A stretch of DNA of 64,000 bases, from the sequence record KJ190158, one strand, 5' to 3'. This DNA comes from Escherichia phage FFH2. Below are positions 27,463-43,231 of this stretch, piece after piece (within the stretch, counting starts at the first letter, position 1; every line of letters starts with the position of its first letter). Below the pieces are notes generated by a model that saw only the letters and a list, made by a program, of their open reading frames with translations, did no database searches and was not told where the DNA came from. A program made the position numbers and the translations under genes.

Positions 27463-27768
27463 ATGGCTAAATCTAAAGTTGAACTGTTCACCTCTCTTCC
27501 TTCTGACACTGCAGAGCGTGATCGCCTTCGCAAAACAATCGAAGAACTGGTGGAACTCCAACTTCAGATTAAAGATCTGAAAGATGCCATTAAGGATATC
27601 ATTCTCGTTGAGAAGCAGGATCACCTGTATTCTCCTAAATTCATCAAATCTCTGGTTGCTACCGAGTTTGATATTCGCTATGAGGCTGAAAAACGTCGAG
27701 CTAAAATCGAAGAAGAGGTTGAGCACATGTCCGAGGCAGACATTCTGTTCAAACGCTCTGTAGAATAA
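27463..27768 (+). CDS. hypothetical coiled-coil protein
   Basis: 101-aa ORF with an AAGGAGA SD. The heptad-rich pattern weakly resembles GapR/DUF2312-type DNA-binding proteins, but I would not rely on that. Confidence 0.6.
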   Translation: MAKSKVELFTSLPSDTAERDRLRKTIEELVELQLQIKDLKDAIKDIILVEKQDHLYSPKFIKSLVATEFDIRYEAEKRRAKIEEEVEHMSEADILFKRSVE

Positions 27769-28738: not shown

Positions 28739-28828
28739 ATGAGAACATTGTCCGAAGTTTTAGTGGTGATCCTGATGATCATTACGTCCATAGCGGCTGT
28801 TGCCGGAATACTCACGGGTGGAACATGA
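28739..28828 (+). CDS. hydrophobic micro-protein (29 aa)
   Basis: MRTLSEVLVVILMIITSIAAVAGILTGGT. The stop overlaps the next start (ATGA). Below the ORF-track cutoff. Confidence 0.4.
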   Translation: MRTLSEVLVVILMIITSIAAVAGILTGGT

Positions 28829-29037
28829 TCAACACACATGCATCTGAAGAGACATCCGAAGGAGTTACCATCTGTCCCTTGGCTGAGCCAGTGAAAGAGG
28901 AAAACTTCGATTCTGAAGATTATCCATCTCCGTCCCAGGTAGATCCTGAGGCTGATGACCTAACGTGGGAAGACATCGTAGATATCTGGTTCTCTATTAT
29001 GCCTGAGCACGAAGAGTTCAGGGGTGGTAGACTATGA
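28825..29037 (+). CDS. hypothetical very acidic protein (70 aa)
   Basis: Rich in D and E (EENFDSEDYPSPSQVDPEADDLTWEDIVD). Confidence 0.5.
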   Translation: MINTHASEETSEGVTICPLAEPVKEENFDSEDYPSPSQVDPEADDLTWEDIVDIWFSIMPEHEEFRGGRL

Positions 29038-29156
29038 AGCACCGAGCCCACACAGGTTCCTCATACTAAAGCATGGCCTGAAGAGGCAAACGTGCATAAT
29101 TCCTGCGCATTTGGACGTATAATCCTGTTCACACTCTCATTTCCAGAGGAGATTTT

Positions 29157-29372
29157 ATGAAGATAGAAATATTTGGTGGAGCTGACAACACTCGTGGCCT
29201 GATTTACCTTGAATTTGATGAATCATACCTGCCAGAGGTGTTAAATATAGACTCTGTTGCTGAGGCTTTGGGAGTAAACCCTAAAGAACTCCACTCTTGT
29301 GCTGAGATCGATGGTTGGGAAGAGACCATGAACATTGATTTCAGTGAAGTAGAGGATGAACCGCTGGACTGA
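29157..29372 (+). CDS. hypothetical acidic protein, last plus-strand gene
   Basis: MKIEIFGG...EVEDEPLD with an AGAGGAGA SD. Confidence 0.55.
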   Translation: MKIEIFGGADNTRGLIYLEFDESYLPEVLNIDSVAEALGVNPKELHSCAEIDGWEETMNIDFSEVEDEPLD

Positions 29373-29499
29373 CACACAATTAGCTGCCCGGCTAAAGTGC
29401 TGGAAGCACCTATAACACATCTTTCAACTAAATTTCCTACCACCACAATCACTTACCTCCCACACATGACTGTTTGCTTGTTTAGTGAGCAGTCATGCC

Positions 29500-29527
29500 T
29501 TGACATTCTTGCCTATCCTGATAAAAT
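29500..29527 (+). promoter_or_regulatory. sigma70-like promoter firing into the ORF-free region
   Basis: TTGACA-16 nt-TAAAAT, just after a CATGACTG...CAGTCATG hairpin (29465-29497). There is no ORF downstream for about 2.3 kb. Confidence 0.5.
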
Positions 29528-30842
29528 TAAGTTCTTCTCTTTTCTTTTACCGAGTAATTCGGGTTTTCTGTTCTCTTCGGTTTGAAGGGGTATAGAGATA
29601 CACCTGAGTGAACAGGGTGAACAACCGAACATTTGGCTATGGCATTAGCATGGCGAAGCGGACGGGTGACGAAAGAGGGGCCGGAGGACACCAGTCACTG
29701 CCATATGATATATGGGTGATAACCTGAAGAGTCTGAATAAGTGTTTAAGTACCAGTCAGAGGAAAAGGTGAATGGTAGCCGAAGGGGGAGGGGGGTTTCT
29801 TGTATCTTTAATTTGTATATTATGTATACACTTGTAAACCAATCTCATCTGAATTTGTTTACCACACAAAGTGGATAGGGACAAATATTACCTATTAAAC
29901 TTGAATTATTTATAGAAATACCACAACACCACTTAAGTCTTTGATTTTACACACAAATCCTACAGATATTCACCCTCCATATTTAACATACCTGTAACAT
30001 ATTCCATACCCTACCTGACCGATCAATTCACCCAACTACATCCCCATATTTTCCCTGTCTGTACTACCCCTGCCCCGCCGGGAGTCCCGTCATATCTGGC
30101 TTTCCAGCAAATATCACACCCACAAATATCATTGCCTGAAGAGGGTTTCATCCCATAATACATGCCTTACCTGAAGAGCGCTTCATACACCACGTAAATT
30201 TTTTAATTGACCCCCTCCCCGCCGCCGGAGAGGTTGGCTTTTCCCACACAGACCTGAAGAGTCAGCCAGAAATATCTGAACAGGTCCAGCTATGCCACGA
30301 TTTTGTGCTTGTCCTACAGGAGTGCCTCCCTGTCAGGAGCCGGTAGCGACTGGAGTGCTGCCAGGCGGACGAAATGGGAATCATTCTCATTCTTATAACA
30401 ATTCTCAAATATCGAGGCAGTGAGGCAAATTAATAGGTGAGGCCGTTCACACAATGGCACAACATTTGCAACCTATCTTGTGGGAGTGAATGAGAATACC
30501 TATCATTGTGAGAATAGTTATCATTACGGGCAATTTAACATAATACCCATTATGCGCACCACTGGCGATCCATACAGGGATTGATAACATGGGTTACTGT
30601 TTACACACATAACAATTATATTTCTTACTATTTGTGTGGGATATAGTTAGCAGCCGATAGATTAGATATTGACCTGTAGACTTCCAACCGTCCAGACGTC
30701 TAAACGCCCACACAACAAGGGTTATACATACACAACTGAATGTAAACAGGGCCGCAAAAATGCTACCATACAAGCTTGTAAATTTTTCATGCAGCACTTG
30801 ACAAAGAGGAGGAAAACTTGTCTGACACTTTAGACACAATAG

Positions 30843-31168
30843 TGACATAATATGACATAATGGTGACACTGAACATAATTGACATGCCTGACTGTTTACA
30901 TAGCTAACTATTCATACAGAAATGATAAGCCATGCCATTCGTTTGCATGATAATAATTAACTTGTTTACAATAGATGACATAATATAAAAGCAGGGCAAC
31001 TATTAGAAGATCTATAGTTGCCTTGCTTGTTATGTCATGATTAACTAAATACAAGGCAACTATGATCTGATTAATAGTTTGCAGACAAACTATCACGGGG
31101 GTGATGGTTACTGCTTTTATATTATGTCGCGACTCCGTCGCGCCATGCCATTCGTTTGCATAGTTGCC
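30843..31168. repeat. cluster of three short repeat families (TGACATAAT, GGCAACTAT half-sites, 20-mer GCCATGCCATTCGTTTGCAT)
   Basis: TGACATAAT at 30843, 30853 and 30976, plus inverted near-copies at 31029 and 31121. GGCAACTAT/ATAGTTGCC at 30995, 31014, 31055, 31074, 31086 and 31160. The 20-mer at 30929-30948 and 31142-31161. Confidence 0.8.
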
Positions 31169-31778
31169 TTATTGTTACAGATAAAATAATTGTATTGTTA
31201 ATTATTTCTTATCTTTCTCTTAGTCATCTAATGATTCCAGTCAGTATAGTAATGTACAGTAAACATTAGACGACTAAAGATTTCTCTGTTTATTATAACT
31301 TACCGTGACAATTTCAGGCTGTTTACGAAAAATGTTGACACCTGGGCCGATTTATGTTATGCAGTTTACACGAATAATTATTTTATGCAGGTATTGACTA
31401 TTCCGTTATTCTATGGTTGGAATAAATACTTAGCAGACTATAGAATGGTGAGCGTACGTAAATTCTGAGATCTGGCGGCTATAGTTATACTCGATTTTTC
31501 ACGTAGAACACGCTTTTGTTAGTGTGTAAGTGTATGACTTATAAAGATTTTTAGTTGTTGACAAGATATTGAAGATGTGCATCAGGTTAAATTTTGTGCA
31601 ATAGCGGCATTACGTGCAATTTTGAGAGAGAAAACGGGTAAAAATGGCCTTGCTATCACACAATGAAAAATTATGCAATAGTTATTTTACATGTATGTTT
31701 GTACAGTGTGTGGGATTGATGGCTAGTCAATTATTCCACTTGCCAGGCTGGGCCGTTTGTGGTAGGAGAAATACAGAC

Positions 31779-31806
31779 AAAAAGAAAGGGGCCTTTTAAA
31801 GCCCCT
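31779..31806 (-). terminator. rho-independent terminator ending the minus-strand small-gene block
   Basis: Minus strand: GGGGC-tttaaaag-GCCCC followed by TTTCTTTTT. Confidence 0.75.
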
Positions 31807-31824
31807 GATAGTTTAGTTAAGAAA

Positions 31825-32244
31825 TTATAATGATTCGTATATTTCATAGATTCGATTTGCCAGGTCGTTACGGTAGCGGAATTTTTCCTCACGTTTGATC
31901 ATCAGATCTTTAAAGCCATATTCTTTAAGCACTTCATTAACTTTATGGCGGCATACCTTCATATTATCCTGTGCGTCACCAATAAACCTGTTGCTATGGT
32001 GCATGGCTTTAATTTCTTCTTCCAGGACCAGAGCAACTATGCGGACCGGATCAAGCTGATAGGCGGTAACATCCATGCGGCATTGTAAACGACTTTTTAC
32101 GTCTGCCACCGGATATACTGCAACCTCTTCCCCGTCAACATTGACAATAATTAGTTTACCATCGATTTCGAATCCTTTCGCCGCCGGACCGTGACAAAAA
32201 GCGTTATCAAAGCTATATGCCGGATTATTAGATTTAATGTTCAT
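31825..32244 (-). CDS. hypothetical protein
   Basis: 139-aa ORF with an AAGAGGTAAAA SD and its own promoter upstream. Confidence 0.6.
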   Translation of the reverse strand: MNIKSNNPAYSFDNAFCHGPAAKGFEIDGKLIIVNVDGEEVAVYPVADVKSRLQCRMDVTAYQLDPVRIVALVLEEEIKAMHHSNRFIGDAQDNMKVCRHKVNEVLKEYGFKDLMIKREEKFRYRNDLANRIYEIYESL

Positions 32245-32293
32245 GGTGTTTTTACCTCTTAGTTAATTTTCTTACAACTTCCCTTCAAAAAAG

Positions 32294-32322
32294 AATATAG
32301 CAAAACTGCCGATCCTTGTCAA
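32294..32322 (-). promoter_or_regulatory. sigma70-type promoter
   Basis: Minus strand: TTGACA-17 nt-TATATT. Confidence 0.65.
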
Positions 32323-32390
32323 CCAAGGATAGCATAATTTTTATGTGATCAAGGGGCTTTATTGCCCCCCTGATCGTGCAACTTGTTGTA

Positions 32391-32654
32391 TTATTTGTTG
32401 CTCATCCAGTTTTCCCAAGCTGCCTGATAATCTGCCTCACTGCGGCGGATCTCTTCTTGTTCTTCAAGCCGGATCTCTTCTTCCAGGTACCCCAGGATAT
32501 CGGCTTTTTTGGTCTGGCGTAACATCCAATCATCTTTTTTACGAGTAAAGATCTTATAAGCTTTCTCGCAAACCTCTTTTTTGCTACCTTTTTGGACTTC
32601 AAGAACACGATAAGCCATATATTGAACTAGTTTGAGCTGGTCAAGACGTTTCAT
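32391..32654 (-). CDS. hypothetical protein
   Basis: 87-aa ORF with an AAAGAGGAAAA SD preceded by a GGGCC-aaaa-GGCCC hairpin. Confidence 0.6.
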   Translation of the reverse strand: MKRLDQLKLVQYMAYRVLEVQKGSKKEVCEKAYKIFTRKKDDWMLRQTKKADILGYLEEEIRLEEQEEIRRSEADYQAAWENWMSNK

Positions 32655-42215: not shown

Positions 42216-42374
42216 TTTTGTACCTCCTCTTCAATTGTTACCTATCCTATAGCATAGGCCCACCAGGTTTACAAGCCTTCATTCTCTCCTACCTGGTCAG
42301 TTAGGTCCTGCCAGGCTGGCCCCACTAGGTTGCAGCGGTTAGTGCATCAGGTTAGAAAAATTTTTTGAAAAGTG

Positions 42375-42403
42375 TTGACAGCGGCCCCGCCAGGTGGCAC
42401 AAT
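42375..42403 (+). promoter_or_regulatory. plus-strand sigma70-like promoter P1 in the ORF-free island
   Basis: GAAAAATTTTTTGAAAA (UP-like), then TTGACA-17 nt-CACAAT. It is oriented opposite to all flanking genes. Confidence 0.5.
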
Positions 42404-42420
42404 ATACCTATCGAAAGGAC

Positions 42421-42493
42421 GGCAGGCACCGGTGACGGGGGAGACAACCACCGGGGATGGGCGCTGCATAAAATGAGAACGGTTATCATTATC
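42421..42493 (+). repeat. GC-rich structured element copy 1 plus Fur-box-like motif
   Basis: GGCAGGCACCGGTGACGGGGGAGACAACCACCGGGG... contains the CCGGTG/CACCGG stem. It is followed by GAGAACGGTTATCATTATC (42475-42493). Confidence 0.7.
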
Positions 42494-42518
42494 ATTTAAA
42501 AATTTATGCAAAAAATCC

Positions 42519-42546
42519 TTGCTTTCTTTGTCCTGTGTGATACTAT
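42519..42546 (+). promoter_or_regulatory. plus-strand sigma70-like promoter P2 (extended -10)
   Basis: TTGCTT-16 nt-TGaTACTAT. Confidence 0.45.
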
Positions 42547-42555
42547 AATAACAAG

Positions 42556-42629
42556 CCGGGGCAACAGGGGCCGGGAGACAATCACCGGGCCTGCCCGTTA
42601 TTCTGCAAACGAGAATGATTATCATTCAA
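42556..42629 (+). repeat. GC-rich structured element copy 2 plus Fur-box-like motif
   Basis: CCGGGGCAACAGGGGCCGGGAGACAATCACCGGGCCTGCCCG followed by GAGAATGATTATCATTCAA (42611-42629). Confidence 0.7.
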
Positions 42630-42742
42630 AATTCTAAATGAGAACTCCTCGCATTTAATAAATTTAATTAGCACGCTAATTACACTCCGTAACAATTTAC
42701 TATAAAATAGTATCCACTAAAATATTCCCATATAGAAATTTT

Positions 42743-43200
42743 AAAAATCCATTTCTGAAAACGAAAAATCGATTTCGTCCCTAAAAATTTCAGGCCTAGA
42801 TCCGGAACGATTTCCAGAAAATCCGATTCAGAAAACGAAAAACAGATCGAGTACTGAGAAATTTATCGAGAAAAATTTTCAGAAAATCCAAGCCCTGAAA
42901 TGAAAAGTAGATCGAGTACCTGGAAAGCTGCACCGCAACTTCAAGATAGTGGTTAGATTGTTACCATAGAAGGTCAAGGGTAAGTGGAGGAAGTTCTAGT
43001 AGAGGGAGGTTAGCATGTGTGGGAAATCTATAATGGTGGCCTGGAATATAGTGCAAACGATAGGATGAGTTATTCAGCTTGTCGCGCCTACTCTGAAAAA
43101 TCCATTTTAGTTTTCGATCCATTTTCTGATTTTCTAAGAATTTTAAAATATCCGGCCCGGTGAAATATCAAAAGGAGGAAATCCATTTTAGAAATCCCCC
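42743..43200. repeat. A/T-rich iteron field: three tandem ~65-73-nt units plus inverted copies of (A/G)GAAAATCC
   Basis: Units start at 42743, 42816 and 42881 (AGAAAATCCnnTTCnGAAAAYGAAAAnnAGATCGAGTAC...). Further AAATCCATTTT copies lie at 43095, 43177 and 43190, with inverted copies at 43115-43135. Confidence 0.75.
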
Positions 43201-43231
43201 TTATACTTGATATGCCAGGAATTTTCAAGTA

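Follow-up and report, generated by a model that had tools for sequence, protein, structure and literature searches.

The chromosomes of phages T7 and T3 end in short direct terminal repeats (DTRs) of 160 and 231 bp, respectively, a class known as "DTR (short), T7 type". In T7, the terminal repeat is flanked by arrays of short repeats, and transcription from a nearby promoter is directed toward the junction. Staggered nicking followed by 3′ extension is the accepted origin of the DTRs of T3 and T7 (PhageTerm paper). Within the genus Vequintavirus, "short terminal redundancies of 458 bp" were reported for EdH4 and HdK5 (Korf 2019, PMC6563267), and the record of Gotham (MT682716) has an unlabeled 459-bp repeat_region feature at both of its ends. 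Klebsiella phage KPP-1 (Mydovirus) has a 514-bp DTR that was assigned to the T7 type by PhageTerm, with 2× coverage, and a DTR of 342 bp was reported for Escherichia phage BME3 (Justusliebigvirus). In this report, we analyze the 2452-bp gap between two convergent gene blocks at positions 29373–31824 of a 64,000-nucleotide stretch of Escherichia phage FFH2 (KJ190158); this whole stretch is called the window. The window belongs to a Vequintavirus, an rV5-like myovirus with a genome of approximately 137 kb. The gap is very probably the junction of the two physical ends of the linear Vequintavirus chromosome, in a concatemer-like form that contains a single copy of the terminal repeat.

The ends were located using relatives for which the termini are resolved. 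The records of Gotham and EdH4 end in exact 459-bp repeats, which were found to map to positions 30364–30822 of the window with 95% identity, and two terminal copies are also found in HdK5 and YN3. EdH4, HdK5, and Gotham therefore resemble the window in having the same repeat and the same end coordinates at this level of identity; they differ in that their sources give only the repeat length or an unlabeled repeat_region. The records of bov11CS3 and bov25_3 begin at the base homologous to 30364, and the record of ECP2303 finishes at the homologue of 30822. At least eight GenBank records from five groups begin or finish at one of these two bases, and the ends are thus fixed and shared among isolates. 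Both of the testable properties of the short exact class of DTR, the same sequence at the two ends and a fixed position of the ends, were found in the close relatives. The original prediction for this stretch of DNA had listed "a packaging or terminus region" among the candidate roles of the gap, and that alternative proved to be correct. Since the DTR is present once within the window, the FFH2 record would show the junction form, with both ends collapsed by the assembler.

The conservation of the region was determined from a MAFFT alignment of 20 genomes covering window positions 28800–32400. The length of the DTR is constant at 458–460 bp, without insertions or deletions (indels), and its identity is 0.90–0.97. 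Conservation resumes 18 bp before the left end of the DTR and collapses 5 bp after the right end. Because conservation breaks within 5–18 bp of the deposited ends, these ends are evolutionary boundaries as well. By homology, positions 29373–30363 would be the untranslated tail of the right genome end, and positions 30823–31824 would be the untranslated head of the left genome end. The two neighboring gene blocks are both transcribed toward the genome ends. The virion DNA of FFH2 would carry the DTR at both ends, as predicted from the homology of approximately 95%.

The junction is similar to that of T7 and T3 in its fixed, sequence-defined ends and in the presence of a short exact repeat once per junction. 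It differs in that the phage is a 137-kb myovirus that uses the host RNA polymerase, in a repeat that is about three times longer, and in untranslated flanks that each span about 1 kb. Its sequence is not similar to that of T7.

The sequences at the two edges of the DTR (Table 1) have a context in common. The left-edge motif is kept in 20 of 20 relatives, and the right-edge motif is invariant in 20 relatives except for one A/G difference, with conservation collapsing immediately to the right of 30827. When read on the bottom strand, the right edge is TGTCA^GACAAG. The left edge (top strand) and the right edge (bottom strand) therefore both have the context 5′-TGYCA^GRC. Since the same context lies on opposite strands, the two edges have the geometry needed for a single site-specific nuclease that makes staggered nicks, followed by extension from the 3′-OH ends.

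A mechanism for the formation of the ends can be proposed on this basis. Replication would yield concatemers with one copy of the DTR between adjacent genomes, as in T3 and T7. The terminase complex would assemble on asymmetric elements that flank the repeat: the CCTGAAGAG, AAATATCA, and C-run motifs on the left side, and the helically phased GACAY and 16-bp TTYAC arrays on the right side. The terminase would then introduce two nicks, one between 30363 and 30364 in the top strand (GTGCTGCCA^GGCGG) and one between 30823 and 30822 in the bottom strand (TGTCA^GACAAG). Extension from the two 3′-OH ends would copy the 459 bp to give a packaged genome with a DTR at both ends, and after injection the DTRs would allow recombination back into concatemers. 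The steps past recognition, namely nicking, extension, and which protein acts on which array, we infer from the sequence.

Comparable motifs were found at the ends of two phages that have no overall alignable similarity to the window. KPP-1 belongs to another genus, and its ends were determined independently. Its edges are GGTGCTA^GACGGAC and CTTGACAAGGAGAGAGAATTGTGTT^TAGCAA, which correspond to TGCTA^GAC and TGCTA^AAC, or TGCTA^RAC at both. BME3, from another subfamily, starts after GGTGCTT^AACGCG, with CTTGACAAGAAAGATTTCTTTGTGTTCACA about 500 bp inward. The left-edge sequence GTGCT..^RRCG is similar in the window, KPP-1, and BME3, and the right-end sequence CTTGACAA-purine tract-TTGT is common to all three as well. 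The number of k-mers common to the three terminal regions was 5 at k = 9 and 2 at k = 10, compared with 0.72 and 0.03, respectively, in shuffled controls. In addition, AAATATCA pairs, C-runs, and ACCTGAAG(A/T)GTCAGCC recur beside the DTRs of KPP-1 and BME3. Because the edge motifs and k-mers are shared, a common end-recognition system across these phages may be inferred. KPP-1 also resembles the window in that its DTR is located in a gap that is poor in open reading frames (ORFs) and separates convergent blocks, and the statement of the original prediction that a noncoding block of this size is unusual for a compact lytic phage is therefore overstated. The left flank of KPP-1 differs in being only 335 bp long and in having no counterpart of the 29450–29797 unit described below.

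The published 342-bp repeat of BME3 does not end at the conserved right-end motif, and the record itself (PP239276) is internally redundant: its first 788 bp are found again at 146169–146956, its first 342 bp are found again at the very end, and the feature annotated as "DTR-L" is shifted by 73 bp. The right-end motif CTTGACAA...TTGTGT is located at approximately 484–508, and for this reason the true repeat of BME3 may be about 500 bp rather than 342 bp. Given the redundancy of the record, BME3 was dropped as a third test of the edge motifs, and only its left edge and the position of its right-end motif were used.

Several points weigh against the assignment of the gap as the junction of the chromosome ends. 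The ends of the FFH2 isolate are deduced from relatives at approximately 95% identity and not from its own reads, and the deposited ends are possibly off by a base or two. The TGYCA^GRC motif is short and was defined after the edges were known. Two announcements describe Vequintavirus genomes as circularly permuted or headful (the bov phages and BpE1AUH); the bov records in the collection are version 2, and they start at the DTR. A general caution from the PhageTerm authors is that transposase libraries lose termini. A certain explanation covers only 459 of the 2452 bp in the gap, and a box-rich segment of 213 bp is missing in phage FV3, which means that the phage can do without at least some of the repeat-dense DNA.

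The gap as a whole was found to be free of recognizable genes. It is bordered by ORF 29157–29372 (71 amino acids, aa), the last gene on the plus strand, and by ORF 31825–32244 (139 aa), the last gene on the minus strand; both match annotated coding sequences (CDSs) in rV5, navn, LL12, and others. The borders originally proposed (29372 and 31825) are thus borne out. The two segments described there as lacking any ORF of 60 aa or more, 29586–30593 (1008 bp) and 31097–31824 (728 bp), are exact and rank first and second among the six-frame stretches of this kind in the window; the third longest is 42626–43231. The promoter, the minus-strand terminator (31787–31806), the inverted repeat at 29465–29497, and the palindrome at 29814–29830 were also present as predicted, and at least seven direct-repeat families were counted where at least five short-repeat families had been claimed. 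The terminator is annotated as such at the homologous place in Gotham and EdH4.

No Pfam or PHROG match was obtained for the three ORFs of at least 60 aa within the gap (62, 91, and 62 aa), and the ORFs neighboring the gap likewise matched neither collection. In each of the two flanking genes, the variable sites of the 20-genome alignment are strongly periodic by codon (p = 9e-8 and 0.004), and no such periodicity was found in the four gap segments tested (p = 0.09–0.99). In most relatives, the 91-aa ORF contains stop codons or frame shifts that break it. A small minus-strand ORF at 30023–30163 was ruled out by a frame-shifting indel at approximately 30044 in relatives. Neither a conserved ORF, nor codon phase, nor a family match that would indicate an intact or decayed protein-coding gene was found in the gap. 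On the basis of the ORF, codon-phase, family-search, and motif-count results, the gap is truly noncoding, is retained, and is richer in motifs than expected by chance.

The gap matches approximately 120 phage records, all of them Vequintavirus, with 88–97% identity, and it is mostly unannotated in these records. The homologous region of the rV5 reference (104014–106617) has no annotated feature, and no CDS appears in the gap in careful annotations such as those for rV5, FV3, LL12, and the phages of the BASEL collection. The possibility raised with the original prediction, that related genomes carry ordinary genes here, was checked and is not the case. A distant blastn search of 50,697 phage records with the whole gap returned only Vequintavirus matches. 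Scans of IMG/VR and of metagenomes by pattern recovered a handful of near-identical Vequintavirus contigs and no divergent homologues for covariation, a search for related loci with the 139-aa neighboring protein found only three close relatives, and there was no match in complete E. coli genomes. In the rV5 genome paper, the sole mention of this place is among several points where the skew switches, in connection with a change in the direction of transcription.

Two observations concern the records themselves. Some automated annotations contain 7–16 tiny "hypothetical protein" CDSs in the homologous gap (NHEP1, PQ511146; MiataMamis, PP925834; Mangalyan, OR449013; PMBT16; and JLBYU08), which are 27–68 aa long in the two records that were examined. 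These are probably over-calls, because there is no codon phase in the variation and there are no family matches. In addition, 19 records numbered MG0656xx are labeled "Campylobacter phage" (some are marked UNVERIFIED) and are 88–95% identical to E. coli Vequintavirus genomes in this region. The host label of these records may be wrong.

Table 1. Features of the gap between the convergent gene blocks, in window coordinates (^, predicted nick).
Position	Strand	Feature	Basis or note
29465–29497		Inverted repeat CATGACTG-N17-CAGTCATG, ending 2 bp before the –35 element	Candidate regulator site
29500–29527	+	Predicted sigma-70 promoter, TTGACA-16 nt-TAAAAT with extended –10 TG, directed rightward toward the DTR	11/12 match
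29534–29797	+	G-rich noncoding segment of ~262 nt, ending in G5AG6 (29784–29795) then TTT; putative noncoding RNA or primer RNA	Conservation
29798–29930		A/T-rich (27–31% GC) variable spacer with palindrome TGTATAttatgTATACA (29814–29830)	Between G-rich and C-rich blocks
29931–30281	+	Conserved C-rich block, GC skew –0.3 to –0.8	Composition, motifs
30282–30345		Hypervariable indel zone just outside the left DTR edge	Identity 0.57, gap fraction 0.34 (20-genome alignment)
30355–30370	+	Left-edge motif GTGCTGCCA^GGCGGAC, predicted top-strand nick at 30363/30364	Record ends of HdK5, YN3, bov11CS3, bov25_3, Gotham, EdH4
30364–30822		DTR, 459 bp, one copy in the window	Homology to record ends
30373–30407		Two adjacent Fur-box-like 17-mers, TGGGAATCATTCTCATT (palindromic) and TGAGAATTGTTATAAGA (minus strand)	Motif scan
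30486–30528	+	Two Fur-box-like 17-mers in tandem, TGAGAATACCTATCATT and TGAGAATAGTTATCATT, with an 18-bp spacing	0–1 mismatch to TGAGAATNNTTATCATT
30797–30827	+	Right-edge motif CTTGACAAAGAGGAGGAAAACTTGTC^TGACA, predicted bottom-strand nick at 30823/30822	Record ends of Gotham, EdH4, HdK5, YN3, ECP2303
30823–30928	+	Hypervariable short-repeat arrays just outside the right DTR edge	GACAY units, then TGTTTACA/TTYAC units
30929–31161		Segment with an identical 20-bp direct repeat, GCCATGCCATTCGTTTGCAT, at each end (30929–30948, 31142–31161)	Repeat search
31162–31776		Conserved (0.87–0.98) A/T-rich noncoding DNA, weak promoter-like matches only	No codon phase, p = 0.09
31777–31806	–	Intrinsic terminator of the minus-strand gene block	AGGGGCTTTAAAAGGCCCCT then TTCTTTTTGT

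The DNA to the left of the DTR contains a unit at 29450–29797 that is 96.5–99.7% identical in 117 records and comprises the inverted repeat, the predicted promoter, and the G-rich segment. The inverted repeat is near-invariant in 28 relatives, with variation in the outermost pair alone; as an intrinsic terminator it was ruled out, as it has no T-run. This unit may have one of three roles: it may specify a trans-acting noncoding RNA (ncRNA), it may act as an R-loop primer or origin, or its transcription may assist the processing of the ends, as in T7. The ncRNA and origin alternatives of the original prediction can be retained for 29450–29930 only, and no support was found for the partition-like role that accompanied them.

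A doubtful but tenable explanation is that 29534–29797 is a stable trans-acting ncRNA of about 262 nt, acting as a regulator of host or phage mRNAs, as a decoy for a host defense or an RNA-binding protein, or as a cofactor for packaging, and that it is simply located in the untranslated terminus. The pattern of variation in the promoter is consistent with this proposal. None of the 14 promoter-defining positions (–35, TG, and –10) varies in the 28 relatives, compared with 9 of the 13 other spacer positions, and the one relative with a 2-nt insertion in the spacer retains a legal spacing; invariant elements with a variable spacer are the classic signature of a functional promoter. The density of variable sites in the unit (0.083) is far below those of the adjacent genes (0.23 and 0.44) and close to that of the first and second, nonsynonymous codon positions of the neighboring gene (0.099), and it shows no codon phase. 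In comparisons with NHEP1 and FV3, the unit falls in the top 2–6% of 350-bp windows over approximately 50 kb. Folding is strand-specific: the plus-strand RNA has a predicted energy of –85.2 kcal/mol (z = –2.2 relative to shuffled sequences), whereas z = –0.5 for the minus strand, and in the predicted fold the 5′ pyrimidine tract CUUCUCUUUUC pairs with the 3′ G-run, which is followed by U's. The six one-sided substitutions at predicted pairs all keep pairing, through G-U.

Other results argue against an ncRNA. RNAalifold with 15 distinct sequences gave no compensatory change at any of the 85 predicted pairs, because the sequences are too similar and vary too little. No Rfam 15 family matched the window at the gathering score, and at thresholds up to E = 10 the region 29200–32000 gave only weak matches, mostly to the terminator or to repeats. 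ARAGORN found no tRNA or tmRNA. A blastn search with the conserved unit alone (E up to 1, 50,697 phage records) found no homologue outside the genus, and none was found in E. coli. There is no compact terminator hairpin, an early hairpin at 29550–29562 could abort most of the transcripts, and the conservation could act at the level of DNA. No transcriptome of a Vequintavirus turned up in a search of the literature.

At 29550–29572, approximately 16–28 nt past the start predicted for transcription from the 29500 promoter, a terminator-like hairpin was observed (CCGAGTAATTCGG, then GTTTTCTGTT). This hairpin does not vary in any of the relatives and could be an attenuator.

Alternatively, 29450–29930 could be a transcription-primed origin of replication, although this is unlikely. 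The G-rich RNA would form a persistent R-loop with the C-rich template, ending at G5AG6, the A/T-rich stretch would unwind, and the 3′ end of the RNA would prime the leading strand via the phage replisome with its T7-gp4-like primase-helicase. The order of the elements fits such a scheme: a constrained promoter, a G-rich transcript (GC skew of +0.2 to +0.5) ending in G5AG6-TTT, and a stretch with 27–31% GC, with extreme conservation of the transcribed DNA. A G-run followed by T is reminiscent of the R-loop primer sites of ColE1 and of mitochondrial CSB II. The region resembles T4 oriF and oriG, the primary origin of T7, and ColE1 RNA II in having a promoter, a G-rich transcript, and an A/T-rich stretch of the unwinding type; it differs from the T4 and T7 origins in that the transcribed part of 29450–29797 is far longer and more conserved, and there is no sequence or Rfam similarity.

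The cumulative GC skew peaks at the gap, and the rV5 paper lists 104425–105475 among its skew switch points and reports a T7-gp4-like primase-helicase. However, the skew switch coincides with the change in the direction of transcription, as the rV5 authors concluded. DnaA boxes are not enriched (7 in the window compared with 8.4 expected, with one in the gap), the A/T-rich part is among the less conserved pieces (0.87), and an origin located 0.6–1 kb from the end of a chromosome would be awkward unless circles or concatemers replicate. An origin of the iteron or DnaA type was not found, the arrays being hypervariable in sequence and copy number, and none of the genes beside the gap was identified as an initiator; the neighboring ORFs lack a Pfam match. 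An origin at 29450–29930 is compatible with the terminus function of the rest of the gap.

The remaining DNA outside the DTR consists of blocks of very different conservation. The A/T-rich spacer is replaced by an alternative sequence in the group of Mangalyan, A135, and LL12. The C-rich block that follows is a candidate recognition platform for the terminase or a host factor on the side of the right genome end. It contains three copies of CCTGAAGAG (30135, 30170, and 30253), two of AAATATCA (30109 and 30124), and C5TC4 (30211–30220), which is the inverted complement of part of the G-run. A pairing of G5AG6 with C5TC4 was unsupported, as the C-run varies while the G-run is constant. CCTGAAGAG occurs 9 times in the window compared with 0.67 expected, and five co-oriented copies are clustered at 29077–30261. 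The copy at 29077–29085 is just upstream of the last plus-strand gene, between ORFs 28825–29037 and 29157–29372, and the other four copies (4526, 5393, 12825, and 61362) apparently correspond to in-frame Pro-Glu-Glu codons in long coding regions. The indel zone at the left edge of the DTR contains differing insertions in navn/C15/RudolfGeigy and in JEP1.

To the right of the DTR, the identity is 0.63–0.79 over the arrays and 0.63–0.80 from 30828 to approximately 30990. The GACAY units recur every 9–11 bp, with 6 in the window, and the TGTTTACA/TTYAC units recur every 15–16 bp, with 1 in the window and up to 9 in rV5. The arrays are 106–219 bp long in most of the 18 genomes measured, and the copy number differs between phages. 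The segment at 30929–31161 encloses an 18-bp perfect inverted repeat (30977–30994/31111–31128). Three AGGCAACTAT boxes (30994, 31014, and 31054) are located between the arms of this inverted repeat, and a fourth box is at 31160. In FV3 (NC_019517), the missing 213 bp consist of one copy of GCCATGCCATTCGTTTGCAT and the 193-bp interior, and the inverted repeat and three AGGCAACTAT boxes are gone. This deletion looks like a natural recombination between the GCCATGCCATTCGTTTGCAT repeats, and the deleted part is dispensable because it is absent from FV3.

Within the DTR, palindromic sites similar to the Fur box were identified. The 17-mer TGAGAATNNTTATCATT, with up to 3 mismatches, occurs 18 times in the window compared with 4.4 expected, and good copies are found only in the DTR (30373–30407 and 30491–30525) and at 42.47–42.63 kb. 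The Fur consensus has been given as the 19-bp GATAATGATAATCATTATC or as the 7-1-7 sequence TGATAATnATTATCA (PMC4506495). Either Fur of the host or a regulator of the phage may bind these palindromes. A homologue of rV5 gp153, a "transcriptional regulator", is located at 27463–27768 of the window. A further proposal, which we consider very unlikely, is that the repeat-dense DNA is a platform for host factors or for the control of entry, on which DTR-bound Fur controls DNA entry, the protection of the ends, or iron-responsive early transcription. Consistent with this idea, 4–5 of the 17-mers lie inside the DTR in the 6-bp register that is typical of Fur arrays, and in KPP-1 and BME3 the same 17-mer is clustered within the DTR or close to it, with matches at 16–17 of the 19 consensus positions. 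Those in the DTR of the window, however, match at only 13–14 of 19 positions (compared with 15–16 of 19 at 42.4–42.6 kb), and at 42.4–42.6 kb the motif is downstream of two promoters and not over them. No strong promoter overlaps the sites; the best minus-strand candidate inside the DTR (TTGAGA-17-AATGAT, 9/12) is too weak, and most relatives differ at the –10 element. The motif could also be the site of a regulator that the phage itself encodes, these myoviruses are not known to take up their DNA in two steps, and a literature search for Fur sites in phage termini found none.

The noncoding part of the terminal repeat of phage T5 is rich in repeats and palindromes and holds the injection stop signal. 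The FFH2 locus is similar to the T5 repeat in its dense direct repeats, inverted repeats, boxes resembling those of host factors, and untranslated chromosome end. It differs in that the T5 repeat is approximately 10 kb long and includes the pre-early genes, and in that the boxes in the window are Fur-like rather than DnaA-like.

The region 42216–43231, which holds the third-longest ORF-free stretch, is a second ORF-poor and repeat-rich part of the window. It contains two tandem units, each with a sigma-70-like promoter (TTGACA-17-CACAAT at 42375–42403, and a second at approximately 42520–42548) and, after it, about 65 nt of GC-rich sequence, and the units end in Fur-box-like palindromes at 42474–42490 and 42610–42626 (15–16/19). 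A/T-rich TTTCAGAAAA/CGATTTCG repeats follow at 42740–42900. The folding of the two units was not significant (z = –0.95 and –1.68).

Finally, the view that the gap is decayed coding DNA or a neutral spacer with chance repeats and no function beyond its two terminators, for which the tiny CDSs annotated in NHEP1, Mangalyan, and MiataMamis and the one 213-bp piece that FV3 can lack might be cited, is already contradicted by the evidence and most improbable, as the region is kept in approximately 120 genomes with several blocks more conserved than the flanking genes, has no codon phase, no protein family match, and a 91-aa ORF that is interrupted in most relatives, and contains motifs far in excess of chance together with the mapped ends of the genome.

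The short terminal redundancy has been documented before in this genus, and features of this kind are ordinary among phages. In the literature searched, we did not find a description of the 2.45-kb architecture, the symmetric nick context, the end motifs common to different genera, or the constrained promoter-RNA unit, all of which appear to be new; the indel-rich zones at the DTR, the flanking arrays, and the Fur-box-like 17-mers inside the DTR were likewise not found described. Taken together, the locus is a useful landmark for annotation and engineering with one intriguing subelement, and it is not a new class of system. With regard to that subelement, we raise as a tentative possibility that the 29450–29797 unit is a new genus-wide essential RNA element of DTR myoviruses, either an R-loop primer or a cofactor (the RNA or its transcription) that licenses cutting by the terminase, and that together with the nick and cross-genus end motifs it defines an uncharacterized end-processing system.

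The rV5-like phages are widely used in the biocontrol of E. coli O157 and in phage collections, and their records are deposited in arbitrary permutations. The ends at 30364 and 30822, together with the edge motifs, provide a simple rule for orienting and annotating these genomes, in which the tiny CDSs called in the gap by some pipelines are probably artifacts. They also mark the DNA that has to be retained in engineering these phages or in rebooting them from synthetic fragments. With a nick context common to both edges and end motifs that recur across genera, recognition by the terminase becomes directly testable, and concrete candidates for a function in replication, packaging, or host sensing are provided by the promoter-RNA unit and the sites similar to the Fur box. 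If the proposal is true, then the RNA element, the nick motif, and the end motifs across Vequintavirinae and Stephanstirmvirinae would constitute an end-processing system in a large group of therapeutic coliphages.

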